Shown: one piece after another, positions 7,424-43,343 of the stretch
Layout of the letters: every line of letters starts with the position of its first letter
How positions within the stretch are numbered: position 1 is the stretch's first letter
Assembly (NCBI GenBank): GCA_964408955.1
Contig: CAYPBK010000004.1
Coordinates: forward strand, 31,279 to 95,278
Direction: 5' to 3'
From: an uncultured Clostridiaceae bacterium
GTDB lineage: Bacteria > Bacillota > Clostridia > Lutisporales > Lutisporaceae
Length of the DNA: 64,000 bases
The notes under the pieces: model-generated
Databases searched by the model: none
Told to the model about the DNA's origin: nothing
What the model saw: the letters and a program-made list of their open reading frames with translations, nothing else
Program-made: the position numbers and the translations under genes

Positions 7424-7576
7424 TATCACTTAGTTTTTAAGCGTCACGTTAAAATCTAAAATTATATCGAAAGAGGAATAATTATGGGATAGGGAAAACA
7501 TTCATCTTTTAAAAAAATGCATTCTTGAATGGTTATATCCTTCTAGCGGCAATAGGATATGGGCAGAAATTTTAGT

Positions 7577-7681
7577 AAAAATAAAAATAGAGGAGAGAAA
7601 AAAATGAAGAAAAATTTATCGTTGTTTATCGCATTAACTATCGTTTTTAGTTTGTTAAGCGGACTATCTATTATAGTTTCT
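7577..7681 (+). repeat. 5' duplicated block (RBS + signal peptide), copy 2
   Basis: Aligns with 5370-5473 with a few substitutions and a 1-nt A-run difference. Confidence 0.85.
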
Positions 7682-8776: not shown

Positions 8777-8779
8777 ATA
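8081..8779 (+). repeat. 3' duplicated block (~700 bp), copy 2
   Basis: Collinear with 6152-6850. The antisense track ORFs 6263-6463/8192-8392 and 6490-6684/8419-8613 are mirror artefacts of this repeat. Confidence 0.9.
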
Positions 8780-8849
8780 CGAAAGATCATATAAGACTAC
8801 AAAATGACTCGCGGTGACTGACTGAGACCACTGAAAAAGTTACTTTATT

Positions 8850-8927
8850 GTCATTCTGAGCGTTAGCAAGGAATCTTAATGTGTTGGTAAAACATGATTC
8901 CTCACTTCGTTCAGAGTGACTTTTTTT
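8850..8927 (+). terminator. Long imperfect hairpin + T7 (intrinsic terminator / repeat-like element)
   Basis: GTCATTCTGAGCGTTAGCAAGGAATC (8850-8875) pairs with GATTCCTCACTTCGTTCAGAGTGAC (8896-8920), followed by TTTTTTT. Confidence 0.7.
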
Positions 8928-9046
8928 GGGAAACATGTATTTGTCAGTGATTTTGGAATGGCACCGTGAGTCTTTTATTATGTAGCAAAATTGTGCTATA
9001 ATAGTTGGAAACGAGTGGATAATTCAATTTATTTGGCGGTGATAAA

Positions 9047-16289: not shown

Positions 16290-16313
16290 AAAGGGCTATT
16301 ACAGCCCTTTTTT
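16289..16313. terminator. Bidirectional terminator between convergent addA and the GntR gene
   Basis: Stem AAAGGGCT, loop ATTAC, stem AGCCCTTT, flanked by an A-run and a T-run. Confidence 0.8.
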
Positions 16314-16941
16314 ACTTAAATACCTCAGTTCCCATAAAAATTGATTGGAAGTCTTTAACATGGTTAGTCAAAAGCCTTACAGTTTCTGAAACGTTTCTTG
16401 CTTCGATATTATTAATAATTTCCTCCAATTCTTCTGTTACGGATTTATCTATAAAAGCCAAATACTGTTTGTTTAAAAACATAAACCTGATACATAAGTC
16501 TGTTACATTATTCATTGTTTTTTCCAATAAAAAGTTTCTTGTTGTTTTGGAAATTGTCCTATGAAACTCTCTTTCGCACATGACTTTTTTTACATGTTCT
16601 GTTTCATTGATAGTATCCTTCACTACCTGCCTTAAACAGATGATATCATCTGCAGTCGCTTTTTTTGTCACTAGCTCTCCTTCCAAAGCTGTTAAAGTCA
16701 ACCTCATTTGGTATATAGACTCCATTTTTTCCAGAGGAAATTCGCTGACTAAAAAGCACTTTCTGGGTATTGTTCTCACTTGTTCATCCCAAGAAAGCCT
16801 GCTTAAAGCTTCTCTTATAGGCGTTCTTCCCATATTAAAACGCTCCATAAGTTCAGATTCCACAATTATTTCACCGGGCTTAAGTTCTGCCGTCATTATT
16901 AGTTTTTTAATCCTATCATAGGCAATATCACTATCTCTCAT
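16312..16941 (-). CDS. GntR-family (FadR/FCD-type) transcriptional regulator
   Basis: N-terminal winged-helix segment (PGEIIVESELMERFNMGRTPIREALSRL) followed by an alpha-helical FCD-like C-domain. Confidence 0.8.
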   Translation of the reverse strand: MRDSDIAYDRIKKLIMTAELKPGEIIVESELMERFNMGRTPIREALSRLSWDEQVRTIPRKCFLVSEFPLEKMESIYQMRLTLTALEGELVTKKATADDIICLRQVVKDTINETEHVKKVMCEREFHRTISKTTRNFLLEKTMNNVTDLCIRFMFLNKQYLAFIDKSVTEELEEIINNIEARNVSETVRLLTNHVKDFQSIFMGTEVFK

Positions 16942-16967
16942 GTAGTTCCCCCCTGAATTTAATACTA

Positions 16968-17921
16968 TTAGGAAAAGCCTCCGCCGGTACGGATAAGGAT
17001 ACCTTGACTATTAGAGGACATAAAAGCTGCGACTTCCTGTATCCTTTCCACTGTTGGAATTGCTATATTAGTCAGTTTATATCTCAAACCGAGAGTCCTG
17101 TAAGTATCCACACCTAATCTGTGATAAGGCAACAGCTCTATTCCTTGTAATCTGTGAATTCCTTTGCAAAATTCAATGGTTGATAATAGGTTTTCCTCGG
17201 AATCGTTGATAAAGGGAATCAGCGGAATTCTAACAAAGATTTTAATAGGATATGATAAACTATCAACCTTTAATATATTTTTCAATATTAAACTATTGTT
17301 TACTCCCGTATATTTCTTATGGCTTTCATTATCCATATGCTTGATATCAACGTACAAGACATCTAAATAAGGAAGAACTTTTTCTATTTGGGTAAAAGGA
17401 GCAAACAGGCTTGTTTCCATTGCGGTATTTATACCTCTTCTTCTGCATTGCTTCATAACTTCTGATACGAATTTAGCTTGTATTAAAGGCTCACCGCCGC
17501 TGAAGGTAACTCCGCCATCAGAGTGATAGTAAAAGATTTCGTCCTTTGCGATTTCTTTAACCAAATCGTCAACGGTAATGATTCTTCCGTACTTTTTATA
17601 GGCGCTAGAAGGACATTTTTCATAACAGGCTAAATTCATATTACACTTATCTTTAGAAATATTAATTTTATTATCCAAGGATAGTGTTAAAGCGCCTTCA
17701 GGACAGGATTTTATACAAACACTGCAGCCGGTACATTTATCATATAAATAACCTTTTTCTATTTCCATATTATGTGATTCAGGAGTTGAACACCACCAAC
17801 ATCTCAAAGGGCAGCCTTTTATAAAAACAACAGTTCTCAGACCACTCCCATCATGGATAGAAGTTTTTTCAATTCTTAATATCATTCCTTTATCATTTAA
17901 AAAAGAATTCATATTCATCAC
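16968..17921 (-). CDS. Glycyl-radical-enzyme activating enzyme (radical SAM)
   Basis: GCPLRCWWCSTPES CX3CX2C motif. Ferredoxin-like Cys clusters (CTGCSVCIKSCPEGA and C..C..KCPSSA). GGVTFSGGEP SAM motif. The start overlaps the GRE stop (ATGA at 17918-17921). Confidence 0.9.
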   Translation of the reverse strand: MMNMNSFLNDKGMILRIEKTSIHDGSGLRTVVFIKGCPLRCWWCSTPESHNMEIEKGYLYDKCTGCSVCIKSCPEGALTLSLDNKINISKDKCNMNLACYEKCPSSAYKKYGRIITVDDLVKEIAKDEIFYYHSDGGVTFSGGEPLIQAKFVSEVMKQCRRRGINTAMETSLFAPFTQIEKVLPYLDVLYVDIKHMDNESHKKYTGVNNSLILKNILKVDSLSYPIKIFVRIPLIPFINDSEENLLSTIEFCKGIHRLQGIELLPYHRLGVDTYRTLGLRYKLTNIAIPTVERIQEVAAFMSSNSQGILIRTGGGFS

Positions 17922-20311
17922 CCCACAGAGATTCCTTGTTGTGTGGTGCGCCCAATAATCTCATCTTGAACATCTTTTCCTAATTCAACAAAATATGCGG
18001 TATATCCGGCAACTCTGACCAGCAAACCCTTATACTGATCAGGATTTTTTTGGGCATTAATAAGTTTTTCATTGTCAATTATATTAAACTGAATATGGTA
18101 AACACCGAGACTGCACATGCTTCTTAATAGTGCCATAAGCTGTTTAATACCGTTTTCTGTAGATAGCAAAGAAGGATCAATTTTCATGTTTAGTAAAGTA
18201 CCTTGAACAAAACGGTCATGGGGAATATTTGACACGGATTTTAATATAGCTCCTGGTCCGCTGAAGTCAGTTCCGCCACTGGGGCTTACTCCGTCAGCTA
18301 AAGGTCTCCAGGCATTTCTGCCTGAAGGAAGAGCTCCCACTTCCAAGCCGAAAGGAGTGTTCCCTGAGACAGGAAGTATACCCGGGGTCATCTTACCAAA
18401 TTTGCTGCTATACTTCTCTATTTCATCAGCAATGAAAGTAAAAAGTTCTCCGGCAAAAGCATCAACTTCAGAAATATCATTACCATATTTAGGAGCTTCA
18501 AGGCAAAGCCTTTTAATATAATCAAAACCTTGAAAATCCTTGTCAAGGGCTTCCAGCATTTCCTTCATGGGAATCTGTTTTCTATCATAGACAATGTTTT
18601 TGATAGCGGCAATACTGTTTATCAGGTCCGCCACACCGATAAGTATAATTCCGTTGCCCGTATTATACTTTGCTCCGCCCCAGGCATAGTCTTTGGCATT
18701 TTCTATGCAATCTTTGAAAGTTAAGGACAATGCAGGGACGGGTCTGTTCATGCATATCTCATCTATAACATGGCTGCCTTTTACAACAGCACGAACAGCA
18801 TAGGAAATCTGCCTCTTAATAGCATCCAGAAACTCTTCAAAAGTATTAAAGCTTTCTGGATTGCCGGTTCTTTCAGAGATATAGTTTTTACTTTTTCTAT
18901 GCATTCCGTCAAGGAGGGCGAATTCCACCATACTGCCTAAATTAATATCAGCAAGGGCAGTATAATGGCGAAGACGACCTTCCAAATTGGTTTCGACACA
19001 ACCGCATGGATTCCAATTTAAAGCTTCTTTTGAAGGTATGCCTTTATTCATCAGCATGCGTATACCGATATCATCATTGAAAAAAGCAGGAAAACCTGTA
19101 CCCAATTTAATAACCTCAACTATTTTTCTTAGAAACTCACCGGAATTCTTTGCCAGATTATATCTAACCGACAGGGAAGGTTGGTACATCTGGACCTCTG
19201 CCGTTGCTTGCAATATCAAATAAGATAAATCGTTGACGGCGTCTCTTCCAAAGGAATCCACTCCTCCTATGCTGACATTTTGAAACATGGGATATCCGGC
19301 GGCAAACTCGGCAGTGACAGCATCCTGAAACAAACAAGGTTCGCTGAATTTTACCCATAAGCAGTTTAACAGCTCCTGGGCATCTTCCTTCGTAATGAGG
19401 TTATCTAGAATATCCTTTTTATAATAAGGGTATAGATACTGATCCATCCTTCCGGGATTGTAGGAAGCGGCATTTTGCTCCATAAAAATGCATATATGGT
19501 AAAAGTATAAGGCTTGAAGGGCTTCTCTAAAAGTCCTGGCGGGATATTTAGGCACATGGCTACATGTGGCTGATATCTCCATTAGCTCAGCTTTTCTTTT
19601 ATCGTCTCTTTCCAGATTGGCCAAACGAAGTGCTTCATCGCTGTAACGCTTTGCCAAAGTTTTTATTCCATCTGCTGCAATTAGAAGAGATGTAAGGTAA
19701 TAATCCTTTTCATAATCTCCCGGAACAGTGATATCAAGCCTATTTTTTCTTTTTTGTATTTCCTCTTTAATGCCTTCGGTGCCTTTCGTAATCAGCCATT
19801 CGTAACCTGCTGTAGTTTCTCCCCATCCTCTGACAGCTTTTCTATTTATATAGACAACTCCGTTATCGCGCAAAGTCTTTGTATCTTGAGGGATTTGCTT
19901 AAGCCAAGCCTCGTAATTTGATTTGCCTTTCCAATAAGGCTTGATAACGTTTTTGAATACCTCACGGTCCTCCGGACTCAGAAAAAAAGGATCATATCTC
20001 CTTTTACTTATAGTATCCAGTTCCTCATTTAAGACAGACCAGCAAGTATCTGCACATAGAATGCCTCCTCGAATCTTGCTTCCGGAACAGCCGACAATAA
20101 GCTCATCATCCCAAATAGTAACTGTCTTTTCTTCGCATTGTTTTTTAAAGGCTTTTGCTTTTTGAATTACAAAAGGCTCTCCCTCAGTTTCCATAAAGCT
20201 CTCTGTTAAAATTCTCGCGTTTTCTAAATCAACTTCCGGTCTCGTGCTCAACACTCTGTGCTTTAGCCTGTTAATGCGATCCATATAAGCTTTTCTTGGT
20301 TCTTTATCCAT
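17918..20311 (-). CDS. Glycyl radical enzyme, PFL2/dehydratase-lyase class, substrate unknown
   Basis: C-terminal Gly-radical motif LVRVAGYTAYFVEL and Cys loop NPCGCVETN (Cys plus Glu two residues later). The ATG at 20311 (MDKEPRK) is preceded by AAGGGGTGAG. The track start at 20320 is a GTG inside that RBS. Confidence 0.85.
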   Translation of the reverse strand: MDKEPRKAYMDRINRLKHRVLSTRPEVDLENARILTESFMETEGEPFVIQKAKAFKKQCEEKTVTIWDDELIVGCSGSKIRGGILCADTCWSVLNEELDTISKRRYDPFFLSPEDREVFKNVIKPYWKGKSNYEAWLKQIPQDTKTLRDNGVVYINRKAVRGWGETTAGYEWLITKGTEGIKEEIQKRKNRLDITVPGDYEKDYYLTSLLIAADGIKTLAKRYSDEALRLANLERDDKRKAELMEISATCSHVPKYPARTFREALQALYFYHICIFMEQNAASYNPGRMDQYLYPYYKKDILDNLITKEDAQELLNCLWVKFSEPCLFQDAVTAEFAAGYPMFQNVSIGGVDSFGRDAVNDLSYLILQATAEVQMYQPSLSVRYNLAKNSGEFLRKIVEVIKLGTGFPAFFNDDIGIRMLMNKGIPSKEALNWNPCGCVETNLEGRLRHYTALADINLGSMVEFALLDGMHRKSKNYISERTGNPESFNTFEEFLDAIKRQISYAVRAVVKGSHVIDEICMNRPVPALSLTFKDCIENAKDYAWGGAKYNTGNGIILIGVADLINSIAAIKNIVYDRKQIPMKEMLEALDKDFQGFDYIKRLCLEAPKYGNDISEVDAFAGELFTFIADEIEKYSSKFGKMTPGILPVSGNTPFGLEVGALPSGRNAWRPLADGVSPSGGTDFSGPGAILKSVSNIPHDRFVQGTLLNMKIDPSLLSTENGIKQLMALLRSMCSLGVYHIQFNIIDNEKLINAQKNPDQYKGLLVRVAGYTAYFVELGKDVQDEIIGRTTQQGISVG

Positions 20312-20566
20312 TAATCTCACCCCTTTCTTCGATAAAGAATAGTATAAATTAAAGGAAGTATATTATTATTATATTTTAAATATATTATTGATATATTACA
20401 CTTCATTTTACAATATGTGATAATATTTGACAAGTACTTTAGTAAAAATAATGCATATTTATACTAAAAAAATTATAGTTAAGAAATGTTTTTTGCAGAT
20501 TATATTATGAATTTCAAAGGAATTCATGATATAATTTCATCTAGAATACATAAAAGGAGATTTGCT

Positions 20567-21073
20567 ATGATAGTTGAATACATGGGACACAAACCAAAGA
20601 TTCACGAAAGCTGCTATGTTGCAGGTAATGCTTCAATAATAGGTAGAGTGGAATTAAAGAAAAATGCGAACATGTGGTATGGTACAGTCATCCGGGGCGA
20701 TGACAATTATATTATCGTTGGTGAGAATACAAATATTCAGGATAATTCGACAGTTCATATAGACGGTAATTATCCCACTATTATAGGTGATAATGTAACA
20801 ATTGGGCATAATGCAATAATTCACGCATGCACTGTCGGAGATTATGTTCTTGTAGGCATGGGCTCTATAATATTAAACGGTTCCGAAATAGGCGACAACG
20901 TAATAATTGCCGCCGGCTCAGTCGTGCCGCCTGGGAAACGGATTCCGTCCAATACTATGATTATGGGCACTCCCGCCAAGGTGGTAAAGGAATTATCGGA
21001 GGAGGAAATAGAAATCCATAAAAAGAGGGCACTGGATTATGTGGAACTGGCAAATAAGCATAAAGGCTTCTAA
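20567..21073 (+). CDS. Gamma-carbonic-anhydrase-like / hexapeptide-repeat (LbH) protein
   Basis: Left-handed beta-helix repeats with the conserved His pattern (STVHIDG..., IGHNAIIHAC). The ATG at 20567 lies 7 nt after AAGGAGA. A TGATATAAT extended -10 is at ~20527-20535. Confidence 0.75.
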   Translation: MIVEYMGHKPKIHESCYVAGNASIIGRVELKKNANMWYGTVIRGDDNYIIVGENTNIQDNSTVHIDGNYPTIIGDNVTIGHNAIIHACTVGDYVLVGMGSIILNGSEIGDNVIIAAGSVVPPGKRIPSNTMIMGTPAKVVKELSEEEIEIHKKRALDYVELANKHKGF

Positions 21074-21153
21074 ATATTATTTAGAATAGTTATTGGGGTC
21101 ACGGGTCATTATATGAGAATTACAAACAAATAATGAGGGCAAATATAATATTA

Positions 21154-21183
21154 AATATTGTGCGTATGCACAATATTTTTTTA
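21154..21183 (+). terminator. Rho-independent terminator
   Basis: Stem AATATTGTGC, loop GTAT, stem GCACAATATT, followed by a T-run. Confidence 0.8.
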
Positions 21184-21343
21184 AATTATAGGCTTATCTA
21201 TGTTATCTAATCCAAAGGAAAAGGCTATAGTTAAAGAGAATTTATACAATGCAAGCTTAATCGCTTATAATTTGTAAATTTGTATTTTTAACACAAAGGC
21301 CTTTGTTTTCTAAATAGCAATAATATTAAAAGGAGAAGATAAA

Positions 21344-22282
21344 ATGTCAATCAAAAATCATTTAACAGGAATCAAAAATTTAACACGGCAGGACATCGAG
21401 GAAGTCTTAAAAGTTGCAATCGGCATAGAAGACATTATGACCGGAAAAAGTAAATTAAAGCCTTTAGAGGGTAAAGTATTAGGTACAATGTTCTATGAAC
21501 CGAGCACAAGAACCAGACTATCCTTTGAGACGGCAATGCTGAGACTCGGAGGCAAGGTAGTTTCAGTTGCTGATGCACAAACGACAACCTCAGTATGGAA
21601 AGGGGAAACTTTACAGGACACAATAAGAACAATAGACAATTATGTAGATGCAATAGCTCTGAGACATTTTGAAGTTGGTGCAGCCGAGTTAGCTGCGAAA
21701 TATTCTAAAGTACCCATTTTAAATGCAGGTGATGGCTCTAACGAACACCCAACACAAACACTTTTGGATATGCTGACAATATATAAAGAAAGAGGTACAT
21801 TGGATGGACTAAAGGTAGTTATGGTTGGGGATCTTAAACATACGCGTTCAACCAATTCATTAACACTTGGTCTATCAAATTTTGATGTAGAATTTATCTT
21901 TGTAAACCCAACAGGATTTGATACAAGCCAGTGGATTTTAGACATAGTGAAGGAAAGAGGAGTCAAATATACTCAAACAGATAATTTGAAGGAAGCTGTG
22001 AAAGACGCTGATGTACTGTATATTAGCAGAATACAAAAAGAAAGAATGGATGCTTCGGAATATGAAAAGATAGCAGGAGCCTATGTAGTAGATAAAGCAG
22101 TAATTAACGAAGCTTCAAAGATAGTTACGGTCATGCACCATTTGCCGAGAGTCGGTGAGCTTTCTGAAGATCTTGATGATTATGAAGGTGCTGCTTATTT
22201 CCGTCAGACATATAACGGTATGCTTGTAAGAGGGGCATTATTAGCAATACTATTGAACAAAGTACCCGAGGGTATATTATAA
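21344..22282 (+). CDS. pyrB: Aspartate-carbamoyltransferase-like catalytic chain, stand-alone (no pyrI or other pyr genes nearby)
   Basis: STRTRLSFE, WKGETL, ALRH, HPTQTLLD, GDLKHTRS, SRIQKER and HHLPRV align position-by-position with E. coli PyrB carbamoyl-P and aspartate ligand motifs recalled from memory. Confidence 0.8.
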   Translation: MSIKNHLTGIKNLTRQDIEEVLKVAIGIEDIMTGKSKLKPLEGKVLGTMFYEPSTRTRLSFETAMLRLGGKVVSVADAQTTTSVWKGETLQDTIRTIDNYVDAIALRHFEVGAAELAAKYSKVPILNAGDGSNEHPTQTLLDMLTIYKERGTLDGLKVVMVGDLKHTRSTNSLTLGLSNFDVEFIFVNPTGFDTSQWILDIVKERGVKYTQTDNLKEAVKDADVLYISRIQKERMDASEYEKIAGAYVVDKAVINEASKIVTVMHHLPRVGELSEDLDDYEGAAYFRQTYNGMLVRGALLAILLNKVPEGIL

Positions 22283-22324
22283 AAACAGACAAAATCTTAT
22301 TAATCCATATAAAGGAGGGGTTTA

Positions 22325-23359
22325 ATGGAGAGAATTATAGATTTACGCAGTGATACTGTTACACATCCTACGGAGCGCATGCGGGATGCAATGCGGGATG
22401 CGGTTGTTGGGGATGATATACTGGGCGAAGATCCAACAGTAAAAAGGCTTGAAGCCTTAGGCGCAGAAATGTTCGGGAAGGAAGCCGGTTTATTTCTGAC
22501 TTCTGGAACAATGAGTAACCAAGTTGCAGTTTTGACTTTTTGCAATAAAGGAGATCAGATTATTGTCCATAACAGAGCGCATATATATAATTTGGAAGTT
22601 GCCGGTCTTGCCAGCGTTTGTGGTGTACAAGCCAGACCAATTCAAGCGATTAACGGCATGTATGACCTAAAGGAATTAGAAAAAGAAATACACACAGCTC
22701 AGATACAGACTGCTCCAACAACTTTGATTTGTTTAGAAAATACTTTTGATTTAAACAGAGGTCTGGTAGTTAAGCCTGATTATATAGCCGAAGTTAAAAA
22801 AATAGCTGATGAGCATGATATAAAAGTTTATATGGACGGAGCAAGAATTTTTAATGCAGCTGTGGCACTGGGCATTACTGTGGACAAACTTAATCAATCT
22901 GTAGACGCGGTGGGCGTTTGTCTATGTAAAGGGCTTGGCAGCCCATTTGGGTCGCTTTTATTGGGCTCAAAAGAATTTATAGCGAAAGCCAGAAGAATGA
23001 AACAAATGATAGGCGGAGGCATGCGCCAAGGCGGGATAATGGCAGCTGCCGGCATCGTAGGTTTAGAGGAAATGGTCGATAGGATAGATGAGGATCATGA
23101 GAACGCCAAGATTCTTGCCAGTTGTTTGCAAAAAGTTGGTTTAGGTATTGATATGGAACAAGTGCAGACCAATGTAATCCACATTGATTTGAAAGCGGTA
23201 AACATTAAGGCAGCCGAATTTTGTGACAATTTGCTTTCATTAGGTATAAAAGCAAAACCCGTTGGTGAATTCGAAGTTCGTATGATAACACACAAAGACT
23301 TTAAAACTGCCGAGATTAATACAGTTGTTTCAAAAGTAGAGCAATGTATTGGAAACTAA
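22325..23359 (+). CDS. ltaE: Low-specificity L-threonine aldolase family PLP enzyme
   Basis: DLRSDTVTHPT, GDDILGEDPTV, SGTMSNQ, LENT, DGARIFNA, CLCKGLGSP (PLP Lys) and GGGMRQ. Confidence 0.8.
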   Translation: MERIIDLRSDTVTHPTERMRDAMRDAVVGDDILGEDPTVKRLEALGAEMFGKEAGLFLTSGTMSNQVAVLTFCNKGDQIIVHNRAHIYNLEVAGLASVCGVQARPIQAINGMYDLKELEKEIHTAQIQTAPTTLICLENTFDLNRGLVVKPDYIAEVKKIADEHDIKVYMDGARIFNAAVALGITVDKLNQSVDAVGVCLCKGLGSPFGSLLLGSKEFIAKARRMKQMIGGGMRQGGIMAAAGIVGLEEMVDRIDEDHENAKILASCLQKVGLGIDMEQVQTNVIHIDLKAVNIKAAEFCDNLLSLGIKAKPVGEFEVRMITHKDFKTAEINTVVSKVEQCIGN

Positions 23360-23408
23360 AAGAATAATGAGAAAGTAAAGTAGTTTTACTTAAAATATAA
23401 ATGAAAGG

Positions 23409-24077
23409 ATGAGTATTATGGATGATAAAAAGGTAGTGTTAATCACAGGCTATGAACCTTTTGGAGGCGACGATTTCAATCCTTCTTTGGAATTAGCTAA
23501 ATCATTAGATGGTAGTATTTACAAAGACCATGTATTTAGGCATGCGAGCATACCGGTTAACCGAAAAAGAACAGTTCTGGAGATGATAAAAGCTATAGAA
23601 TTATACAAACCGGAAATTATCATTAACACTGGATTAGCTTGGGGAAGAACGGGTATATCTGTCGAGCGTGTTGCTATTAATGTTACGGATTTTCCCATAC
23701 CAGATAATGAAGGGTATATATCAAAAAATGAAACTATTGATGAATCGGGTCCGTCAGCATATTTTGCATCTATTCCTATAAGAGCGGTAACAAAAGCAAT
23801 GCTGGACAATGGAATACCTGCATATGTTTCAAACACCGCAGGCACATATTGTTGCAATATGCTTATGTATGGTACCTTGAATTATATATCTAAGAACAAG
23901 CTTCAAACAAGAGCAGGTATGATACATGTCCCATTTACTCCAGAGCAGGTGGCAGAAAAAAGAGAAAACATACCTTCTATGTCACTTGAAATAATGACAA
24001 AAGCAATTGAAATAGCAGCTAAAGCGGTCATAGATAATAAAGTAGATATTGAAATGATTTGTGGTGCGGTCAATTAG
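23409..24077 (+). CDS. pcp: Pyroglutamyl-peptidase I (C15)
   Basis: ITGYEPFGG..NPS, VERVAINV (Glu), GTYCCN (Cys) and GMIHVP (His) form the catalytic triad context. Confidence 0.85.
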   Translation: MSIMDDKKVVLITGYEPFGGDDFNPSLELAKSLDGSIYKDHVFRHASIPVNRKRTVLEMIKAIELYKPEIIINTGLAWGRTGISVERVAINVTDFPIPDNEGYISKNETIDESGPSAYFASIPIRAVTKAMLDNGIPAYVSNTAGTYCCNMLMYGTLNYISKNKLQTRAGMIHVPFTPEQVAEKRENIPSMSLEIMTKAIEIAAKAVIDNKVDIEMICGAVN

Positions 24078-24121
24078 TTATAAATATTTAAGGTCTTAAA
24101 AAAAATAAAGGAGGCATTTAA

Positions 24122-25594
24122 ATGAGTAAATATCAAGTTACTAATGGAGACTTTGTTACTTTGACTGATGCAGGCATTGGAAAAATTAAAGAATATAATA
24201 ATAACTATGACAACGAAACAAAACCTATAGGCCTAGAGGAAAGGGATTGGAATACTTGGCATATGTCAAGCTTATGGATTGGGATAATTGTCTCCATTGC
24301 TACTTACCAATTGACAAGCGGGTTTATAGTGTCCGGTATGTCTTGGCAACAAGCACTTTTTACAGTCATTCTTGGGCATACATTGGTTTTAATACCCGCC
24401 ATAATGATAGGGCATTTTGGAGCTAAATTCGGAATTTCATTTCCAATGATGTCAAGAGCCATTTTTGGAATAAAAGGAAGCATAATTCCCGCCTTTATTA
24501 GATCAATAGGAGCTATCTTCTGGTTTGGTATACAGACTTGGATAGGTGGACAAGCCATTAACATCATTATTGGGGTGTTTGTACCTTCGTGGAAGGGAAT
24601 GGGTTTCCCCGGAATGTTCATATCATTTATAATTTTTTGGGTTATTAATATTTACATTGCACAGTCGGGGGCAAAAGGAGTAAAAATTTTAGAATCTTAT
24701 TCAGCTCCGGCACTTATTTTACTTAGTTTAATAGTAATTGTTTGGTCGGCTTATGTTGCAGATTGGAGTTTCGCACGGTTGCTAGCAGAACCGGCAGTTA
24801 GAGGAGGAAAAGGTAATTTTGCAAAACTTTTTTTACCCGGGTTGTCTGCAATGATTGCCTTTGATGGTGGTCCGGCGCTTAGTATGCCAGATTTTTCAAG
24901 GCATATGAAAAGCCAGCGTTCTCAAGTTTTAGGACAATTAATTGTGGCACCTATTACAGCTGGATATATTGCTTTTGTAGGCATTTGTGGCACAGCCGCT
25001 TCCTCAATAGCATTTGGAGAAGCTATATGGGAACCTGCCATTCTTGTTTCGAAATTTGATAATCCGATTATTGTATTGATATTTTCATTATTTATAATAG
25101 CAGCGGTTCTCACGACTAATGTAGCTGGAAATTTGATTCCACCAAGTCTTGCAATTTCAACATTATTTCCAAAACAATTAAACTATAAAAAAGCAACATA
25201 CCTAGCTGCCATTCTAGGATTGTTAACTATGCCTTGGTATATGATGGCTAATCCAGAAAATTTCATATTCATGTTTTTAGGCTTATTGGGAGCGTTATTG
25301 GGACCGGTTACAGGTCTTTTTATTGCCTCTTATTGGTTTGAATACAACAAAGAAATAGAAATTGTAGATCTATATAGACAAGATAGCGGCAAATACTATT
25401 TCAGCAATGGTTGGAATAAAGAGATGATGATTGTATTTACAATTTTTACGACAATAATAATTGCTGGTAATTTTGTTCCGTTTTTAAAGTTTGCCTATGA
25501 AAACTCATATTTGGTTGGTATAATAACTGGTATTGTATACTATTATTTTGTTAAAGGTAACAAGAAAAACGGAAACAATCCCACCGCTTCTTAG
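24122..25594 (+). CDS. NCS1-family nucleobase/hydantoin/allantoin:cation symporter
   Basis: 490 aa with ~12 TM helices. N-terminal ERDWNTWHMSSLWIG motif typical of NCS1 (PucI/Mhp1/CodB-like). Confidence 0.75.
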   Translation: MSKYQVTNGDFVTLTDAGIGKIKEYNNNYDNETKPIGLEERDWNTWHMSSLWIGIIVSIATYQLTSGFIVSGMSWQQALFTVILGHTLVLIPAIMIGHFGAKFGISFPMMSRAIFGIKGSIIPAFIRSIGAIFWFGIQTWIGGQAINIIIGVFVPSWKGMGFPGMFISFIIFWVINIYIAQSGAKGVKILESYSAPALILLSLIVIVWSAYVADWSFARLLAEPAVRGGKGNFAKLFLPGLSAMIAFDGGPALSMPDFSRHMKSQRSQVLGQLIVAPITAGYIAFVGICGTAASSIAFGEAIWEPAILVSKFDNPIIVLIFSLFIIAAVLTTNVAGNLIPPSLAISTLFPKQLNYKKATYLAAILGLLTMPWYMMANPENFIFMFLGLLGALLGPVTGLFIASYWFEYNKEIEIVDLYRQDSGKYYFSNGWNKEMMIVFTIFTTIIIAGNFVPFLKFAYENSYLVGIITGIVYYYFVKGNKKNGNNPTAS

Positions 25595-25650
25595 TGTTTA
25601 TAAAGCAACTTAAAAAATGTAATAAAATATGTAAAGAAAGGTGGAAGAAA

Positions 25651-26394
25651 ATGAAGATTTTATTAATAAATCCAAATACAACAAAAGAGATGACTGAGGG
25701 CGCACTTAAGACGGCACTCAAAGTAAAGGACCCAAGGACTGAAATAGTAGGCGTTACAAATGAAAAAGGACCTAGATCAATTGAAGGTGTTTTAGACGGA
25801 ATTATGACAACCGAAGGAGTTCTAGAAATAATAATTAACGAAGAAGATAATTATGATGCTTTTATCATAGCGTGTTTTAGTAGTCATCCATCAGTTATAG
25901 CGGGGAGGGAAGTAACCAAAAAACCTGTTATTGGTATATTTGAGGCAGCTGCTTTTCAAGCTTGTATGCTGGGTGAGAAATTTGGAATAGTTACGACTTC
26001 TAAAAGATGGGTACCTTTGCTAGATGCCGGTGTACACCAACTTGGAGTGGCAAGCAGGTGTGCTGGGATAAGAAGTACTGGTTTATCTGTGCTGGACTTG
26101 GAAAGTAAGGATCCAAAAGAAGTCGAAGATATTTTACTGGAAACTAGCCGTAAAACAGTAGATGAAGACGGTACAGAAGTGATTTTACTTGGTTGTGCAG
26201 GGATGGCAGGGTTAAACGAAAAACTTGAAACAGAACTAGGAGTGACAGTTATTGATGCAGTTGGTGCTGCCACAAAAATGGCAGAAGCATTGATTTATCA
26301 AAAGTTATATACAAGTAAGGTTGGTGCATATGCCCCAGTTGAAAAAAGAGAGACTATAAATATATCTCCTATCTTTGATAAAGTTTACAAATAA
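25651..26394 (+). CDS. Asp/Glu/hydantoin racemase-family protein (hydantoin or allantoin racemase-like)
   Basis: The ATG at 25651 (MKILLINPNTT) follows AAAGGTGG. Two catalytic Cys contexts are present (IIACFSSHP and ILLGCAGMAG). Confidence 0.75.
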   Translation: MKILLINPNTTKEMTEGALKTALKVKDPRTEIVGVTNEKGPRSIEGVLDGIMTTEGVLEIIINEEDNYDAFIIACFSSHPSVIAGREVTKKPVIGIFEAAAFQACMLGEKFGIVTTSKRWVPLLDAGVHQLGVASRCAGIRSTGLSVLDLESKDPKEVEDILLETSRKTVDEDGTEVILLGCAGMAGLNEKLETELGVTVIDAVGAATKMAEALIYQKLYTSKVGAYAPVEKRETINISPIFDKVYK

Positions 26395-26460
26395 GAGACT
26401 ATAATAAGGGTTGTGGTAATTTTAGCTGCAATCATCCATAAAGGGTATTGAGAAAAATCA

Positions 26461-26497
26461 AATTGCAAAAGAATTATAATATAATTCTTTTGCAATT
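26461..26497. promoter_or_regulatory. Perfect 17-bp-arm palindrome inside the operon (operator or RNA hairpin)
   Basis: AATTGCAAAAGAATTAT (26461-26477), loop AAT, ATAATTCTTTTGCAATT (26481-26497). No T-run follows. Confidence 0.6.
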
Positions 26498-26541
26498 TAA
26501 ATCCTTTTCAAACTATATTTAATGATAGGAGACGTGAAACA

Positions 26542-27912
26542 ATGTTTGATATGTTGATAAAAAATGGTCTGATAGTTACTCATGAAGAAATTTTTAAAGC
26601 TGACATAGCAATTAAAAATGGGAAAATTTTATCTATAGGAACACTAGGTTCATTGAAGGCAGTTAACGAAATAGATGCTGATGGCAAATTAGTTATGCCA
26701 GGTCTTATCGATCCTCATGTGCATATTGGTCATCCGTTTAAAGATAAAAAAAGTCAAGATGATTTTTACAGCGCAACAGTGTCAGCAGCATTTGGGGGGA
26801 CAACAACTGTAATAGACTTTGGCATACAATGGAACAAACAATTAGATCTTAGGGACACATTAAAAAAACGAATTTCTGAGGCAGATGGGCAGGCAATTGT
26901 TGATTATGCTTTACATGTTTGTCCAACTGATTCATCACCGGATATTGTTTCTCAGGTCAAATCAATAATAGATTGCGGATTTCCTTCATTTAAGCTTTAT
27001 ATGATATATCGTAAGCAAGGTAGAATGGTGGATGATGCCGTTGTGTTTAGTGTGATGAATGAAGCAAAAAAATATAATGGCATAGTAGGTGTGCATGCAG
27101 AGAACTCAGCAATAGCTGAATACAACGAAGAAGAACTTTTGAGAAAAGGGCTTAATAGTGCGGAATACTTTCCGCTAATGAAGCCAAACATGGTAGAAGC
27201 AGAGGCTATAAATAGAGTGTTGTACCTTAATAAATGGGCAAAAGGTCAATTATATATTTTTCATCTTTCGACTGCAGAAGGATTGGAATTAATAATGAAA
27301 CAAAAAGGTGAAGGACAAGATATTTATGCAGAAACATGCCCACATTATTTAGTTTTGAATAAAGATGTTTATTCTTCTAATAAAGGTTATAATTACATTT
27401 GTAGTCCGCCTCTTAGAGATTATCAAGACATTGAGGCCTTGTGGGACGGGGTAGCAAATGGCTATATTTCCACTATTGGTTCAGATCATTGTGGTTTTGG
27501 GGCTGAATTAAAGGAGTCAGGTAATGGCACTTTTAACCAAACCCCAAATGGATTACCAGGAATTGAATTAAGATTGCCTTTGATTTACACTGAAGGTGTT
27601 TTGAAAAAAAGAATAAGCTTAAATAAGCTGGTGGAAGTTTTAAGTACAAATCCGGCAAAGATATTTGGATTATTTCCAAGAAAAGGTGCCATTATGCCAG
27701 GCAGTGATGCTGATATTACAATAGTAGATATAAATGAAACAAAAAAGGTCACCGCAAAGGATTTACATTCAACCGTTGATTGGACGCCATATGAAGGTAT
27801 GGTGCTTACGGGATTTGCAGCCACAAGTATTTTAAGAGGCGAAGTATTGGTTCATAATGGTGAGCTAAAAGGGAAGCAAGGATATGGAAAATTACTAGAA
27901 AGAAGATTATAA
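26542..27912 (+). CDS. Cyclic amidohydrolase (D-hydantoinase / dihydropyrimidinase / allantoinase superfamily)
   Basis: GLIDPHVHI (HxH), PSFKLYM (carboxylated Lys context), GVHAEN, IFHLST and IGSDHC form the metal-ligand pattern. Confidence 0.85.
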   Translation: MFDMLIKNGLIVTHEEIFKADIAIKNGKILSIGTLGSLKAVNEIDADGKLVMPGLIDPHVHIGHPFKDKKSQDDFYSATVSAAFGGTTTVIDFGIQWNKQLDLRDTLKKRISEADGQAIVDYALHVCPTDSSPDIVSQVKSIIDCGFPSFKLYMIYRKQGRMVDDAVVFSVMNEAKKYNGIVGVHAENSAIAEYNEEELLRKGLNSAEYFPLMKPNMVEAEAINRVLYLNKWAKGQLYIFHLSTAEGLELIMKQKGEGQDIYAETCPHYLVLNKDVYSSNKGYNYICSPPLRDYQDIEALWDGVANGYISTIGSDHCGFGAELKESGNGTFNQTPNGLPGIELRLPLIYTEGVLKKRISLNKLVEVLSTNPAKIFGLFPRKGAIMPGSDADITIVDINETKKVTAKDLHSTVDWTPYEGMVLTGFAATSILRGEVLVHNGELKGKQGYGKLLERRL

Positions 27913-27927
27913 TTTTGAGTTAATAGA

Positions 27928-28830
27928 TTGACCTTGGTACATAAGAAGGGCTATTTTGCTTTCTTATGTATCAATTTTATATTTTCAGTGAGTACTTATG
28001 AATTAATAAGGGGGCTTATTACTTTGGCATGGATCATCTTAGCACTTATCGGATTTGTTGCCGGCAGCATAGCAAATCTACTTGGAATTGGCGGCGGTAT
28101 AATACTGGTACCCGCACTTATTCATATTGTTCCTCATATTTTACATGGGCAAAGCATTACTGCACAAGGTGCCGTTGGAACCTCACTAGTACTGATTATA
28201 ATAGGGGCTTTGTCAGGTACTATAAATAATATTAAAAATAAGCAGATTGACTACGGTGCTGCTTCCATATTCTTCATAGGTGCTATTCCTGGCTCGATTG
28301 TAGGGACTTACTTAAATAGTGTTATAAGTGATGAAAAGTTTAATATGTATTTTGGAATAGTAATGTTTATTATATTTTTTCTGTCTTTTAGTAAAGGTAA
28401 AGCAAAACCCGTAGGTATAGATTGGTCAATTAAAAAAGAGATTTTTGATGATGAAGGGAAAAGCATTGAATATGGGTATTCCATATGGCTAACTATTCTT
28501 ATTTCAATTTTAGCTGGAATCATATCAAGCCTTTTCGGGATAGGAGGAGGCTCCTTGATGGTTCCAATAATGTATTTACTTTATAACTTTCCTATTAGGA
28601 TTGCAACTGCTACATCTACTCTGGTTATACTCTTATCTTCAACAGTTAGCAGCTTAACTCGCTTGCTTTATTACGATTTCGATTGGAGGCTTATTTTGAC
28701 CATAACTCCAGGTGTTTGGTTCGGCGGGAGGTTTGGAGTATTTTTGTCAAAGCGATTAGAACCAGAAGTTACAGAAAAAATTTTACTTTTTGCCCTCCTT
28801 ATTATTGCTTTACGTATGGTTATCGGTTGA
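27928..28830 (+). CDS. TauE/SafE (TSUP, DUF81) family anion exporter
   Basis: Two halves each carry the LLGIGGG / LFGIGGGSL motif. The start is uncertain: TTG 27928, or TTG 28024 after AGGGGG. Confidence 0.7.
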   Translation: MTLVHKKGYFAFLCINFIFSVSTYELIRGLITLAWIILALIGFVAGSIANLLGIGGGIILVPALIHIVPHILHGQSITAQGAVGTSLVLIIIGALSGTINNIKNKQIDYGAASIFFIGAIPGSIVGTYLNSVISDEKFNMYFGIVMFIIFFLSFSKGKAKPVGIDWSIKKEIFDDEGKSIEYGYSIWLTILISILAGIISSLFGIGGGSLMVPIMYLLYNFPIRIATATSTLVILLSSTVSSLTRLLYYDFDWRLILTITPGVWFGGRFGVFLSKRLEPEVTEKILLFALLIIALRMVIG

Positions 28831-28838
28831 CAGGCTAA

Positions 28839-30059
28839 TTAAGAACCTAACTTAAGAAGCTTTAGAGCCAAAAAAAGCTTAAAGCCGTCTGTAAAACGAT
28901 TAGCATCATATCCGGTTATGTCCTTAACTTTATTCAATCGAAATAAAACTGTATTCCGATGCACAAAAAGGCTTTTTGCTGTTTTTGAAACATCCATATC
29001 TTTACTAAAAAAGGTTTCCAAGGTATTTAATAGCTCTACTTTATAGGAATTAAAAGGTTTATTTATTAAATCAGATAGAATTTGTGAACTAAAGGACTTA
29101 TTTAGATTTTTTGGTATATGGGTTAAACTATATTCGAACTGTATGTCTTTGAAGAAGTATATATTTTCCTTCGGGAAAAATATTTGTCCAATTATTAGAG
29201 ATAATTCACCCTCTTTATAGGAAAGAGGATAATCCCGCCAATCTGAATAAGCTTCACTGATACCAATAAATACATCTCCTTCGACCTTCTGCTTAACAAT
29301 GTTTATTATGCTTTTCACAAAGTCGTTTATTGAAGAATCCTTTTCTTGTACAGGATTTTTATATTCATCCTGTACAAGTATTACTAAAGATTCATTATCA
29401 AAAAAATCCATTATGACCTCATTTTTTATATTTAATTTAAATCTTAATTCTTTTATCAGCTCATCCTCATATTTCTGAATTATCATTAAATTATTTGCTA
29501 TATCTTCATAATTTTTATTACGTTGATGCTTATTATTGTATTTGTGTATGTCCATTTTCACAACGATAGCTGCACGGGAAAGGCTTAAATCGAAACCAAG
29601 CATGCGACCACGCTGCACAAATATGTTTTCATCATTGCCATGATTACCAGACAATAAATCATGAAAGAAACTTCTTCTTGCAGTTTTTTGAAGATATATT
29701 TCATCCTTAAGTGAAGCCTGCTCCAACATAAGCTCTGCTGTATAACGGACTAGTTCACCATAGCTTCTTATATCTTCCGGTTCACCAGTAATTCCTATAA
29801 CTCCGACGATACGGGATTCAAAGGTTATGGGCAAGCTTATTCCGGGGTGGACTCCTTCCAAGGTTTCGGCTTCTTTTATAGTAACTTCAGCTTTTTCTCC
29901 ACTTTTTATTACCTTTTCGGCGCCTTCATGAAAAGTACCAATCCTTTTTTTATTGCCGCTTGCAATTATGTATCCCTTTTCATTCATTATGTTGATATTT
30001 CTATTTATTATTAACATAGTTCTATCAACTATAGCTTGGGCAAGTTCAGAATTAATCAT
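28839..30059 (-). CDS. CdaR/PucR-family transcriptional regulator (sugar-diacid-recognition N-domain, PucR C-terminal HTH)
   Basis: The N-terminus LAQAIVDRTMLIINRNINIMNEKGYIIASG..RIGTFHEGA matches the Diacid_rec domain. The C-terminus contains TAKSLFVHRNTVLFRLNKVKDITG. Confidence 0.8.
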   Translation of the reverse strand: MINSELAQAIVDRTMLIINRNINIMNEKGYIIASGNKKRIGTFHEGAEKVIKSGEKAEVTIKEAETLEGVHPGISLPITFESRIVGVIGITGEPEDIRSYGELVRYTAELMLEQASLKDEIYLQKTARRSFFHDLLSGNHGNDENIFVQRGRMLGFDLSLSRAAIVVKMDIHKYNNKHQRNKNYEDIANNLMIIQKYEDELIKELRFKLNIKNEVIMDFFDNESLVILVQDEYKNPVQEKDSSINDFVKSIINIVKQKVEGDVFIGISEAYSDWRDYPLSYKEGELSLIIGQIFFPKENIYFFKDIQFEYSLTHIPKNLNKSFSSQILSDLINKPFNSYKVELLNTLETFFSKDMDVSKTAKSLFVHRNTVLFRLNKVKDITGYDANRFTDGFKLFLALKLLKLGS

Positions 30060-41810: not shown

Positions 41811-42105
41811 TAGAACACCTACCTATTAAAAAATTCATTGTTACATTATATGCATCTAAAGAATTTAAGTTAGGGTCTTAAATAAATAAAAGCTACTTTT
41901 CACATGAATTTTTAGATTACAAAATTAAATAATCTATATTGAAACTATAGCTATATCTTAAAAGTAACAAAAAGTATTTATTAATAACAGTTATTACAAT
42001 AAAATATTGCATATATATTGTATTATTAATATACTTATATTTAGCAGGTAATAAAAAACTTGCAAAATGTCTAAAAATAAAACTACTTTTTGGAGGGATG
42101 AAACA

Positions 42106-43203: not shown

Positions 43204-43217
43204 AATCCCGACCTCAA

Positions 43218-43323
43218 AGATCAATATTAGTGCCTAGAGGCGGAGGACGGATTGTAGGGGTCGACGACCCTGTCGACCCATTGTATGTTGATCTCATTAT
43301 CCAATCCTGGCGCCAGAGACAAA
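43218..43323 (+). promoter_or_regulatory. GC-rich structured leader/intergenic element upstream of the GRE activase
   Basis: A 10-bp helix forms between AGATCAATAT (43218-27) and ATGTTGATCT (43285-94). An 8-bp GC hairpin forms from GGGTCGAC (43258-65) and GTCGACCC (43272-79). Alternative pairing exists between GGCG..GGATTG (43239-54) and CAATCC..CGCC (43302-14). A CTGGCGCCAG palindrome is also present. Confidence 0.5.
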
Positions 43324-43343
43324 AGACAAAAACCAAAGAGGTG

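Follow-up and report, generated by a model that had tools for sequence, protein, structure and literature searches.

A clade of aspartate carbamoyltransferase-like proteins linked to hydantoinase and aldolase genes: a candidate phosphorolytic route for the catabolism of acidic cyclic ureides

What is a protein resembling aspartate carbamoyltransferase (ATCase), the PyrB enzyme of pyrimidine biosynthesis, doing among genes for the breakdown of cyclic ureides? The question is raised by a stretch of 64,000 nucleotides from an uncultured Clostridiaceae bacterium (GenBank assembly GCA_964408955.1, contig CAYPBK010000004.1, positions 31,279 to 95,278), hereafter referred to as the window. The FtsH protein of this bacterium shares 78-80% identity with its counterparts in Lutispora, Anaerosolibacter and Geosporobacter, and only places the lineage near these genera. 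It contains, in this order, genes for an ATCase-like protein, a threonine-aldolase-family enzyme, a pyroglutamyl peptidase (Pcp), an NCS1 permease, a two-Cys racemase, a hydantoinase-type amidohydrolase and a TauE-family membrane protein, followed by a convergent gene for a CdaR-type regulator (Table 1). An original prediction, made from the letters alone, had proposed that the ATCase-like protein replaces a missing carbamoylase in a catabolic, carbamoyl-phosphate-yielding pathway. Open reading frames (ORFs) were assigned to families by comparing their hidden Markov model (HMM) scores with the curated cutoffs of Pfam and NCBIfam/TIGR, and by similarity to solved structures. The eight genes were recovered with the coordinates and families predicted and, among the roughly 40 ORFs scanned in the 64-kb window, neither a carbamoylase, a beta-ureidopropionase or an allantoate amidohydrolase nor any pyr gene was detected, in agreement with the prediction. 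The analysis presented here leans, if only slightly, towards considering the cluster as a module for the degradation of an acidic cyclic ureide that bears a carboxylate, which would yield carbamoyl phosphate and hence ATP, and not pyrimidines.

The ATCase-like protein displays the family motifs FYEPSTRTR, EHPTQ and RIQKER, together with R105, R167 and K84. Upon alignment to E. coli PyrB, the residues S52-R56 (STRTR), K84, R105, H134, Q137, R167, R229 and Q231 are all kept, including the aspartate-binding positions K84, R167, R229 and Q231 whose retention had been noticed beforehand. The protein search revealed a block of relatives sharing 55-74% identity with the window protein, and the same set of PyrB residues is retained by all of them down to about 55% identity. 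Over the same range, the relatives exhibit a fixed signature made of W83, T166, S168, T169, N170 and H266, with C228 in most, which reads as the motifs SxWKGE, KHTRSTNS, CRIQKER and HHLP. The window protein accordingly shows SVWKGE, KHTRSTNS and HHLP, the latter in place of the canonical HPLP; every clade member similarly departs from the canonical HP[LG]P form of the HxLP motif, the second position of which differs diagnostically between members of the transcarbamylase family (PMC4581275). About 80 canonical ATCases from metagenomes and genomes (41-52% identity), among the matches listed, were used as a control set: all of them possess xGRTVHS, TRxQ and HPLP, and W83 occurs in none. A further scan of a genome collection with the window ATCase alone, using variable peptides as probes, yielded five distant relatives.

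A neighbour-joining tree of 70 sequences with 200 bootstraps places the proteins with the HHLP motif in a monophyletic clade (191/200), which associates with two sister groups characterized by HPMP in 198 of the 200 replicates. The mean identity reaches 62% inside the HHLP clade versus 44% to the canonical ATCases, the nearest of which are archaeal-type class II enzymes; the closest solved structures to the window protein are 2rgw and 1ml4 (292 bits). The ATCase-like protein passes the ATCase HMMs and sits on a branch separate from biosynthetic PyrB, so that its first description as a PyrB-like ATCase was right as to family and ligands, but not as to a fully canonical character. The separate clade and the signature fixed beside the substrate site set it apart from an ordinary PyrB. 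Judging from these comparisons, the HHLP clade appears to be a branch of ATCase-like enzymes not described in the literature searched.

Ten independent genomic contexts of the clade were compared, namely the window, the loci L009, L010/L011, L012, L013, L014, L015, L016 and L099, and the P0039 contig, and none of them contains pyr genes. Depending on the locus, the ATCase-like gene is found in distinct surroundings. In L012, L015 and the P0039 contig (type A), a C45 Ntn hydrolase and a Bmp-type ATP-binding cassette (ABC) importer accompany the aldolase, the ATCase, the hydantoinase and a GntR regulator. In L013, from Bacilliculturomica massiliensis, and L016 (type B), AllF, AllG, a tautomerase and a CodA-like amidohydrolase occur in addition to the ATCase, aldolase and hydantoinase. 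The type C loci, L010/L011 and L014, comprise a tripartite ATP-independent periplasmic (TRAP) importer, a CoA-transferase, the ATCase, the hydantoinase and a racemase. L009 carries an HMGL-like protein, the ATCase, a carbamate kinase, CdaR, TctCBA, AllF and AllG, and L099 an Opp-like importer, an HMGL-like protein, a deaminase, a GGT-family protein, the ATCase, a CodA-like protein, the hydantoinase and an aldolase.

Across this variety, hydantoinase orthologues (50-62% identity) occur in nine of the ten contexts, that of the P0039 contig being assigned by Pfam and gene size, and a similarity census finds the aldolase in seven. At the roughly 80 canonical loci, neither has been found as a neighbour of the ATCase; PyrI is found in about 11 and PyrC-like genes in about 30 (about half). 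Pairwise identities co-vary across the clade loci (r=0.78 for ATCase and hydantoinase, r=0.84 for ATCase and aldolase), as expected of a co-inherited module, and the clade spans phyla, from Clostridia to Anaerolineaceae, with the hydantoinase and the aldolase retained. From the predicted seven-gene block, the hydantoinase and aldolase are therefore recurrent, whereas Pcp and TauE have been seen in the window version only. In this respect, ordinary biosynthesis, i.e., a housekeeping pyrB lying by chance beside a hydantoin-utilisation cluster, becomes highly improbable. The protein does pass the PyrB equivalog cutoffs with all catalytic and aspartate-binding residues in place, and canonical pyrB genes are often devoid of pyr neighbours too (e.g., L066 and L029), but the clade signature is foreign to the canonical enzymes listed, the hydantoinase and aldolase are inherited along with the ATCase over a wide taxonomic range, clade members adjoin carbamate kinase, catabolic regulators and importers, and gaps of just 42-49 bp lead from the ATCase-like gene to the downstream genes, with a candidate promoter and a ribosome-binding site (RBS) immediately 5'.

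The accepted way to recognize catabolic transcarbamylases in genomes is by a carbamate kinase gene in their vicinity (PMC6022934). No arcC occurs in the 64 kb of the window; in L009, whose ATCase is 73% identical to that of the window, the adjacent gene is a bona fide arcC (TIGR00746, 452 bits for a cutoff of 358), and another arcC is found in the sister-clade locus L097 (361 bits, same cutoff). The comparison of neighbourhoods across relatives, which had been proposed as a check, has thus delivered a clade without pyr genes, with hydantoinase orthologues and, in L009, with arcC. Moreover, the relatives possess importers that depend on solute-binding proteins (DctP, TctC, Bmp, SBP_bac_5), which argue for uptake and hence for catabolism; those of the type C loci and of L009 are TRAP or Tct, i.e., carboxylate importers. 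Catabolic-type regulators (CdaR, GntR, sigma-54) also occur in the relatives.

These importers and regulators also bear on the opposite direction of flow, an anabolic or salvage role in which the aldolase would build a beta-hydroxy amino acid from glycine and an aldehyde, the ATCase-like enzyme would carbamoylate it and the amidohydrolase would close the ring to a (hydroxy)dihydroorotate- or hydantoin-type product, the carbamate kinase of the relatives acting as a carbamoyl-phosphate synthase. In its favour, the thermodynamics of transcarbamylases are on the side of carbamoylation (PMC4016543) and some carbamate kinases are anabolic (PMC6022934); L017 has an ATCase with canonical motifs close to a carbamate-kinase-like gene, and the window cluster ends with a TauE-family exporter. 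The uptake systems and catabolic-type regulators of the relatives, the complete set for 3-methylaspartate breakdown (lyase, CoA ligase and CitE-type lyase) linked to the sister clades, and the deaminases and M20 amidases within the same operons nevertheless render such a role very unlikely. The ATCase of the L017 locus (9500-11100), with RNGRTVHS, IRLQKER and HPLP, is 47% identical to the window protein; 699 bp separate it from a gene that shares 53% identity with the carbamate kinase of L009. This ATCase could be a further candidate for a catabolic enzyme or, alternatively, form an anabolic pair with the carbamate kinase.

The nature of the ring is approached through the amidohydrolase. The window enzyme scores 353 bits with the solved structure 1k1d against 215-221 bits with the solved allantoinases, and misses the allantoinase HMMs (TIGR03178, 294.8 bits for a cutoff of 357.85; NF004839, 301 bits for a cutoff of 631). 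It is indeed a binuclear-metal cyclic amidohydrolase as initially described, which HMM scores and structural similarity assign to the D-hydantoinase/dihydropyrimidinase type, and neither to the allantoinase nor to the dihydroorotase type. All the metal ligands of D-hydantoinase (H58, H60, K150, H183, H239 and D315) and the catalytic Tyr155 are aligned. The hydrophobic gate of the Bacillus enzyme (L65, F152, F159) is not preserved, however: M63, L65 and G66 are replaced by H, F and K/R, the F159 site is occupied in the ATCase-linked hydantoinases by an invariant Arg (QGRM), a QW[DN] insertion is added and HPF[KR] is present in all of them. These basic features are conserved in eight ATCase-linked orthologues and lacking in the canonical dihydropyrimidinase paralogue of L014. 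Basic gate loops would fit an anionic ring substituent, and the comparison thus points to ATCase-linked hydantoinases acting on a carboxylate-bearing ring.

The aldolase, for which the original prediction had no good explanation, turns out to be a core co-inherited partner of the ATCase, drawn from two aldolase lineages. The closest solved structure to the window enzyme is the L-allo-threonine aldolase of T. maritima, and orthologues sharing 52-62% identity adjoin the ATCase in L012, L013, L015 and L016. The pyridoxal 5'-phosphate (PLP)-binding Lys199, His83 and the carboxylate-binding Arg residues are conserved, while the side-chain pocket formed in T. maritima by Tyr30', Tyr/Phe87 and His125 is altered: in all five closely related cluster-linked aldolases, Y30 is replaced by L/M, Y87 by L (HIFWYE to H[IM]YNLE), H125 by Q and THNRS by FDLNR. 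The aldolase of L099 (13955-15001), a basal locus of the clade, belongs to a different, canonical-looking lineage, 40-44% identical to the other linked aldolases, which keeps Y30 and THN and passes the low-specificity L-threonine aldolase equivalog LtaE (343 bits for a cutoff of 312); aldolase activity thus seems to have been recruited twice, independently. As a core partner from two lineages, the aldolase suggests that the released amino acid is beta-hydroxylated, most simply 3-hydroxyaspartate and not plain aspartate.

The same enzyme family invites a different amino acid, namely L-threonine, allo-threonine or serine, the ATCase-like protein being then a threonine carbamoyltransferase and the aldolase producing glycine and acetaldehyde; the source would be either a 5-(1-hydroxyalkyl)hydantoin as the ring or N-carbamoyl-threonine, which might stem, e.g., from t6A, a nucleoside of tRNA, or from the cyclic hydantoin that t6A forms. 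The pass of the L099 enzyme at the LtaE cutoff, the nucleoside-like Bmp-type ABC importer of the type A loci and the hydroxylated or polar character of many clade substitutions (T166, S168, T169, N170, H266) speak for it. Yet the beta-carboxylate anchors R229 and Q231 are invariant across the clade, whereas both are missing from other transcarbamylases, those for which aspartate is not a ligand (PMC4016543, PMC4581275); moreover, the hydantoinase pocket is basic and no paper on the catabolism of N-carbamoyl-threonine was found in the literature searched. Threonine appears quite an improbable product.

Additional indications come from the HPMP sister clades, which keep W83. Their loci (L097 1-20939 and L098 2650-10413) adjoin bona fide methylaspartate ammonia-lyases (TIGR01502, 564 and 516 bits for a cutoff of 286) and also comprise a SucCD-like CoA ligase and a CitE-type lyase; L097 further carries a racemase, a cyclic amidohydrolase, deaminase-type amidohydrolases, M20 amidases, a nitroreductase-family protein and the carbamate kinase. 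Their content has the look of another ureide pathway, so far undescribed, that ends in 3-methylaspartate. The presence beside the sister clades of methylaspartate ammonia-lyase, an enzyme whose substrate is itself a 3-substituted aspartate, suggests that the wider family releases 3-substituted aspartates, each delivered to a dedicated enzyme.

From this set of observations we infer, as follows, in which direction the reaction runs, which ring is used and what the aldolase cleaves. The NCS1 permease would import the ring, the C5 epimers of which would be interconverted by the two-Cys racemase, and the D-hydantoinase-type amidohydrolase would open it to an N-carbamoyl amino acid. The ATCase-like enzyme would then work in reverse, phosphate cleaving off the carbamoyl group to give carbamoyl phosphate and the free amino acid. 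Carbamoyl phosphate would be turned into ATP, NH3 and CO2 by a carbamate kinase from another part of the genome, and the threonine-aldolase-family enzyme would split the amino acid. An aspartate-like amino acid is indicated, because both carboxylate-binding sets (R167/K84 and R229/Q231) are kept: the RxQxER motif, which in all known ATCases holds the beta-carboxylate of aspartate (PMC4581275), is invariant in the HHLP clade. The substrate of the ATCase-like enzyme would accordingly be N-carbamoyl-aspartate or, more likely, its 3-hydroxy analogue. We consider 3-hydroxyaspartate as the best fit to the four clues offered by the sister clades, the hydantoinase pocket, the importers and the aldolases; as the most economical candidate, it would be cleaved into glycine and glyoxylate, and the ring would be a 5-(carboxy-hydroxymethyl)hydantoin or a 5-hydroxy-dihydroorotate. 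Plain N-carbamoyl-L-aspartate, from 5-carboxymethylhydantoin or dihydroorotate, would serve as a fallback. The N-carbamoyl-L-aspartate intermediate originally suggested thus agrees with the retained ligands and the basic hydantoinase pocket, the aldolase shifting the preference to the hydroxylated form. Similarly, the idea that the ATCase replaces the carbamoylase in a catabolic, phosphorolytic role is supported by comparative genomics, through the separate clade never associated with pyr genes, the co-inherited hydantoinase and the arcC genes of relatives; the support is of that kind only.

A broader reading, put forward tentatively and of rather doubtful standing, derives from ATCase an entire family of catabolic enzymes, as yet undescribed, that phosphorolyse the N-carbamoyl derivatives of 3-substituted aspartates. 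Its HHLP members, that of the window among them, would free 3-hydroxyaspartate for a dedicated aldolase yielding glycine and glyoxylate, and the HPMP sisters would free 3-methylaspartate, to be processed by methylaspartate ammonia-lyase and a mesaconate/citramalyl-CoA branch. With carbamate kinase and the specialised basic-pocket hydantoinases, the family would constitute new ATP-yielding, redox-neutral anaerobic pathways, the substrates of which would be carboxylated hydantoins or 5-substituted (dihydro)orotates.

Several points weigh against the catabolic, phosphorolytic interpretation of the cluster. The equilibrium of transcarbamylases strongly favours carbamoylation (PMC4016543, PMC6022934), so that the reverse reaction requires coupling, and no carbamate kinase is encoded by the ORFs scanned in the window. 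Since the PyrB thresholds are passed and every ATCase catalytic residue is present, a biosynthetic role is compatible with the sequence. For 3-hydroxy-substituted carboxy-hydantoins or dihydroorotates, the literature searched yielded no natural source, nor did it yield any paper on natural 5-hydroxy- or 5-methyl-orotates or on the catabolism of N-carbamoyl-hydroxyaspartate; likewise, nothing was found on the cleavage of 3-hydroxyaspartate by this aldolase subfamily, a reaction that we infer. The proposed pathway does not account for Pcp, an accessory amide hydrolase of this genome's version of the cluster. In L014, an M20 carbamoylase is encoded a few genes away from the ATCase-like gene. Finally, the racemase is closest to solved allantoin racemases, and the co-occurrence of AllFGH-type genes in three relatives (L009, L013, L016) hints at an allantoin-type chemistry.

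The L014 locus (6300-17238) comprises two sets of genes, one made of the ATCase-like gene, the basic-pocket hydantoinase and the racemase, the other of the M20 carbamoylase, a canonical dihydropyrimidinase (563 bits), a FabK/NMO-like flavoprotein and an OYE-like reductase. This content indicates that hydrolytic and putative phosphorolytic ureide routes can coexist.

An allantoin-type route would use the NCS1 permease as a PucI-like transporter, the racemase as HpxA and the amidohydrolase as allantoinase, the ATCase-like protein acting as a ureidoglycine carbamoyltransferase (UGTCase) on allantoate, towards oxalurate/oxamate or glyoxylate. In addition to the racemase, it may claim the best named NCS1 hits, which are allantoin permeases scoring below the curated cutoffs, the AllF/AllG/AllH-like genes adjoining the clade ATCase in the three relatives just named, since AllF/AllG/AllH form the oxamate transcarbamylase of E. 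coli (PMC11326118), and the varied small-amide hydrolases accompanying the core, which could be oxamate amidases. The pseudo-ATCases, however, have been divided into three groups defined by loss of RxQ (AIA/AIS/SIA, GX[SC] or VXP) together with HPLA, H[ST]LP or HSLP (PMC4016543), and the described UGTCases among them, with AIA/AIS/SIA and HPLA, differ from the clade, which keeps RxQxER and shows HHLP; the window protein retains RIQ. The amidohydrolase scores under the allantoinase cutoffs and well over that of D-hydantoinase, the basic gate loops, TRAP/Tct importers and sister-clade methylaspartate lyase designate dicarboxylate amino acids, a threonine-aldolase-type enzyme has no evident role on ureidoglycine, and the GGT-family protein of L099 is not especially HpxW-like, its closest match being a "cephalosporin acylase" entry. 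The allantoin alternative, already mentioned in the original prediction, is thus weakened by the retained aspartate ligands, the basic pocket and the hydantoinase-type HMM scores, and we regard it as unlikely. As a separate observation, the 4-oxalocrotonate-tautomerase-family and cytosine-deaminase-like genes of L009, L013 and L016 are inserted within the allFGH-like set, an arrangement pointing to a modified oxamate-transcarbamylase system that would include additional steps.

Other candidates were rejected: a xanthine amidohydrolase/ureidoimidazole-carboxylate route leaves the racemase and aldolase without a role; creatinine or N-methylhydantoin lack the beta-carboxylate; for hydantoin-5-propionate and N-carbamoylglutamate, the ErtD/ErtE models score far under cutoff and glutamate mutase is absent; and no support was found for aminomalonate.

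Returning to the proposed module for acidic ureides, its transporter and racemase deserve a closer description. The ring contacts of Mhp1 (W117, Q121, N314, N318) are conserved in the NCS1 permease upon alignment to 4d1a, while W220, which stacks on aryl substituents in Mhp1, is replaced by Leu; the permease likely imports a cyclic ureide. The two-Cys character attributed to the racemase is correct, both catalytic Cys (ACF and LGC motifs) aligning with Klebsiella HpxA, whose entries 3qvj and 3qvk show Cys and Ser, respectively, at the catalytic positions. The racemase ORF opens at a GTG overlapping the NCS1 stop, and translation probably starts at the ATG at 25651 (MKILLINPNT), because homology to the solved racemases begins there. 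With regard to the accessory genes, Pcp is absent from all the other clade loci, where hydrolases of the C45, GGT or isochorismatase families take its place, and TauE has been seen in no related locus and is an accessory specific to this genome.

The genes of the cluster are separated by 15-49 bp, with the exception of 147 bp before the hydantoinase gene. The co-directional run noted at first is genuine in direction and tight spacing, but a single transcript is uncertain because a long palindrome occupies this sole long gap, just 5' of the hydantoinase gene, and the cluster is possibly transcribed as one or two units. The palindrome, of which no second copy occurs anywhere in the window, might serve the CdaR-type regulator as an operator or act as an attenuator within the cluster. 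A scan of 16-31 kb with Rfam gave no matches. The convergent CdaR-type protein is the likely regulator of the cluster; in L009 and L013, too, the ATCase is flanked by regulators of this type (43% and 34% identity, respectively).

Table 1. Genes and candidate signals of the cluster (positions within the window).
Feature	Position	Strand	Assignment and remarks
Terminator-like hairpin with T-run	21153..21186	+	11-bp stem then TTTTTAAATTA; consensus match only; closes the upstream gamma-carbonic-anhydrase-like gene
Sigma-70-like promoter candidate TATACA-17-TATAAT	21243..21271	+	10/12 match, second best of the region; consensus likeness alone, not functional evidence
Strong RBS of the ATCase-like gene	about 21331	+	AAAGGAGAAG; read in the sequence
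ATCase-like carbamoyltransferase (HHLP clade)	21344-22282	+	OTCace_N + OTCace; TIGR00670 334.6 bits (cutoff 237); NF002032 295 bits (cutoff 263)
PLP-dependent threonine-aldolase family enzyme (Beta_elim_lyase)	22325-23359	+	GntG-family 394 bits (cutoff 230); LtaE 303 bits, just under 312
Pyroglutamyl peptidase I (C15)	23409-24077	+	NF009676 237.6 bits (cutoff 199)
NCS1 permease	24122-25594	+	PF02133 304.8 bits
Two-Cys hydantoin/allantoin-type racemase (Asp/Glu/hydantoin racemase)	ORF 25594-26394, likely 25651..26394	+	PF01177 198 bits
AT-rich near-perfect palindrome	26458..26500		AAATTGCAAAAGAATTATA / ATATAATTCTTTTGCAATTT; 39-43 nt, 18-20 paired positions; candidate operator or attenuator
Binuclear-metal cyclic amidohydrolase, D-hydantoinase/dihydropyrimidinase type	26542-27912	+	TIGR02033 474.5 bits (cutoff 393)
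TauE/SafE-family membrane protein (anion exporter family)	27928-28830	+	PF01925 174 bits
CdaR/PucR-type regulator, convergent	28839-30059	-	Diacid_rec + GGDEF_2 + HTH_30

Outside the cluster, the window contains several other units. Directly 5' lies a gene for a gamma-carbonic-anhydrase-like hexapeptide-repeat protein (20486-21073), found at the same position in the near-identical contigs L006-L008, and a tie of its product to CO2/carbamate handling is possible. Further upstream, a divergent block on the minus strand (16312-20320) encodes a GntR/FCD regulator and, along with a glycyl-radical-enzyme activase, a glycyl radical enzyme of 800 aa, whose scores reach neither the choline lyase cutoff (694 bits against 1050) nor that of hydroxyproline dehydratase (633 bits against 1100). 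This block does not adjoin the ATCase clade in other loci, and a functional tie to the glycyl radical enzyme was rejected since it is missing from all related loci. A second glycyl radical enzyme (42067-46617) is a bona fide trans-4-hydroxy-L-proline dehydratase (1449 bits, cutoff 1100), in a block including an activase and an Xaa-Pro-dipeptidase-like gene. Finally, a sigma-54-dependent PAS-domain activator followed by a 457-aa tryptophanase/tyrosine-phenol-lyase-like Beta_elim_lyase protein (52253-55374) forms a separate PLP-lyase unit, unrelated to the cluster.

The existence of a catabolic ATCase "remains to be proven" (PMC4581275), and only three firmly established catabolic transcarbamylases have been listed (PMC6022934). 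In this respect, the HHLP clade offers a concrete, sequence-definable candidate, recognizable by HHLP, W83 and KHTRSTNS, which, if the proposal is true, would supply the long-postulated enzyme, and it is directly testable because at least one cultured species, Bacilliculturomica massiliensis, carries it. The clade genes are currently annotated as plain "aspartate carbamoyltransferase", a likely annotation error, and reconstructions of gut, sediment and digester anaerobes probably count them as pyrimidine biosynthesis, thereby missing a route of substrate-level phosphorylation, the natural substrates of which would be acidic hydantoins or dihydropyrimidines. The basic-pocket hydantoinase subfamily might also represent a tool for the biocatalysis of carboxylated hydantoins.

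Among the known systems, the closest model is offered by UGTCase, the first group of pseudo-ATCases, exemplified by Rxyl_2847 of Rubrobacter xylanophilus (Barba et al. 2013, PMC4016543). Like the HHLP clade, it is an ATCase-derived paralogue annotated as ATCase, encoded in a ureide cluster with a cyclic amidohydrolase and, in relatives, with carbamate kinase, and its phosphorolysis to carbamoyl phosphate replaces a hydrolytic carbamoylase, as is proposed for the HHLP clade. In contrast, the pseudo-ATCases have lost the RxQ motif preserved in RxQxER by the clade, whose partner is of the hydantoinase and not of the allantoinase type and which is accompanied by a conserved aldolase, unreported for UGTCase. 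With the biosynthetic class II PyrB of E. coli, M. jannaschii and P. abyssi, the clade shares the fold, the length and the residues binding carbamoyl phosphate and aspartate, but differs by fixed substitutions close to the substrate site, a separate branch, co-inherited catabolic genes and the lack of pyrI/pyrC neighbours in its ten contexts. The catabolic ornithine and putrescine transcarbamylases of the arginine and agmatine deiminase routes resemble the proposed pathway in the succession of a hydrolase, a ureido compound, phosphorolysis and ATP formation by carbamate kinase; they differ in that the HHLP proteins form an ATCase-type and not an ornithine-carbamoyltransferase-type branch, that the first enzyme would be a ring-opening hydantoinase instead of a deiminase, and that the amine released would be an amino acid requiring its own lyase or aldolase. 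The hydantoinase process and the reductive pyrimidine pathway share the NCS1 permease, the two-Cys racemase and the D-hydantoinase/dihydropyrimidinase-type ring opener, whereas in the window carbamoylase and beta-ureidopropionase are lacking, the gate loops are basic instead of hydrophobic, and decarbamoylation is proposed to be phosphorolytic. The fermentation of orotate by Clostridium oroticum, which involves dihydroorotase, L-5-carboxymethylhydantoinase and a hydrolytic ureidosuccinase, likewise corresponds to an anaerobic Clostridial breakdown of a carboxylated cyclic ureide via N-carbamoyl-aspartate; to our knowledge, no genes have been assigned to it and no aldolase step is known. The ureidosuccinase step is hydrolytic there, whereas phosphorolysis is proposed here. 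No papers on the HHLP clade, its basic-pocket hydantoinase partner or its aldolase partner were found in the literature searched. The sequence of ureide hydrolysis, phosphorolysis of the ureido compound and ATP formation by carbamate kinase is already known from the arginine and agmatine deiminase routes and from UGTCase; what appears new with respect to that literature is an ATCase-derived HHLP clade associated with basic-pocket hydantoinase and aldolase partners.

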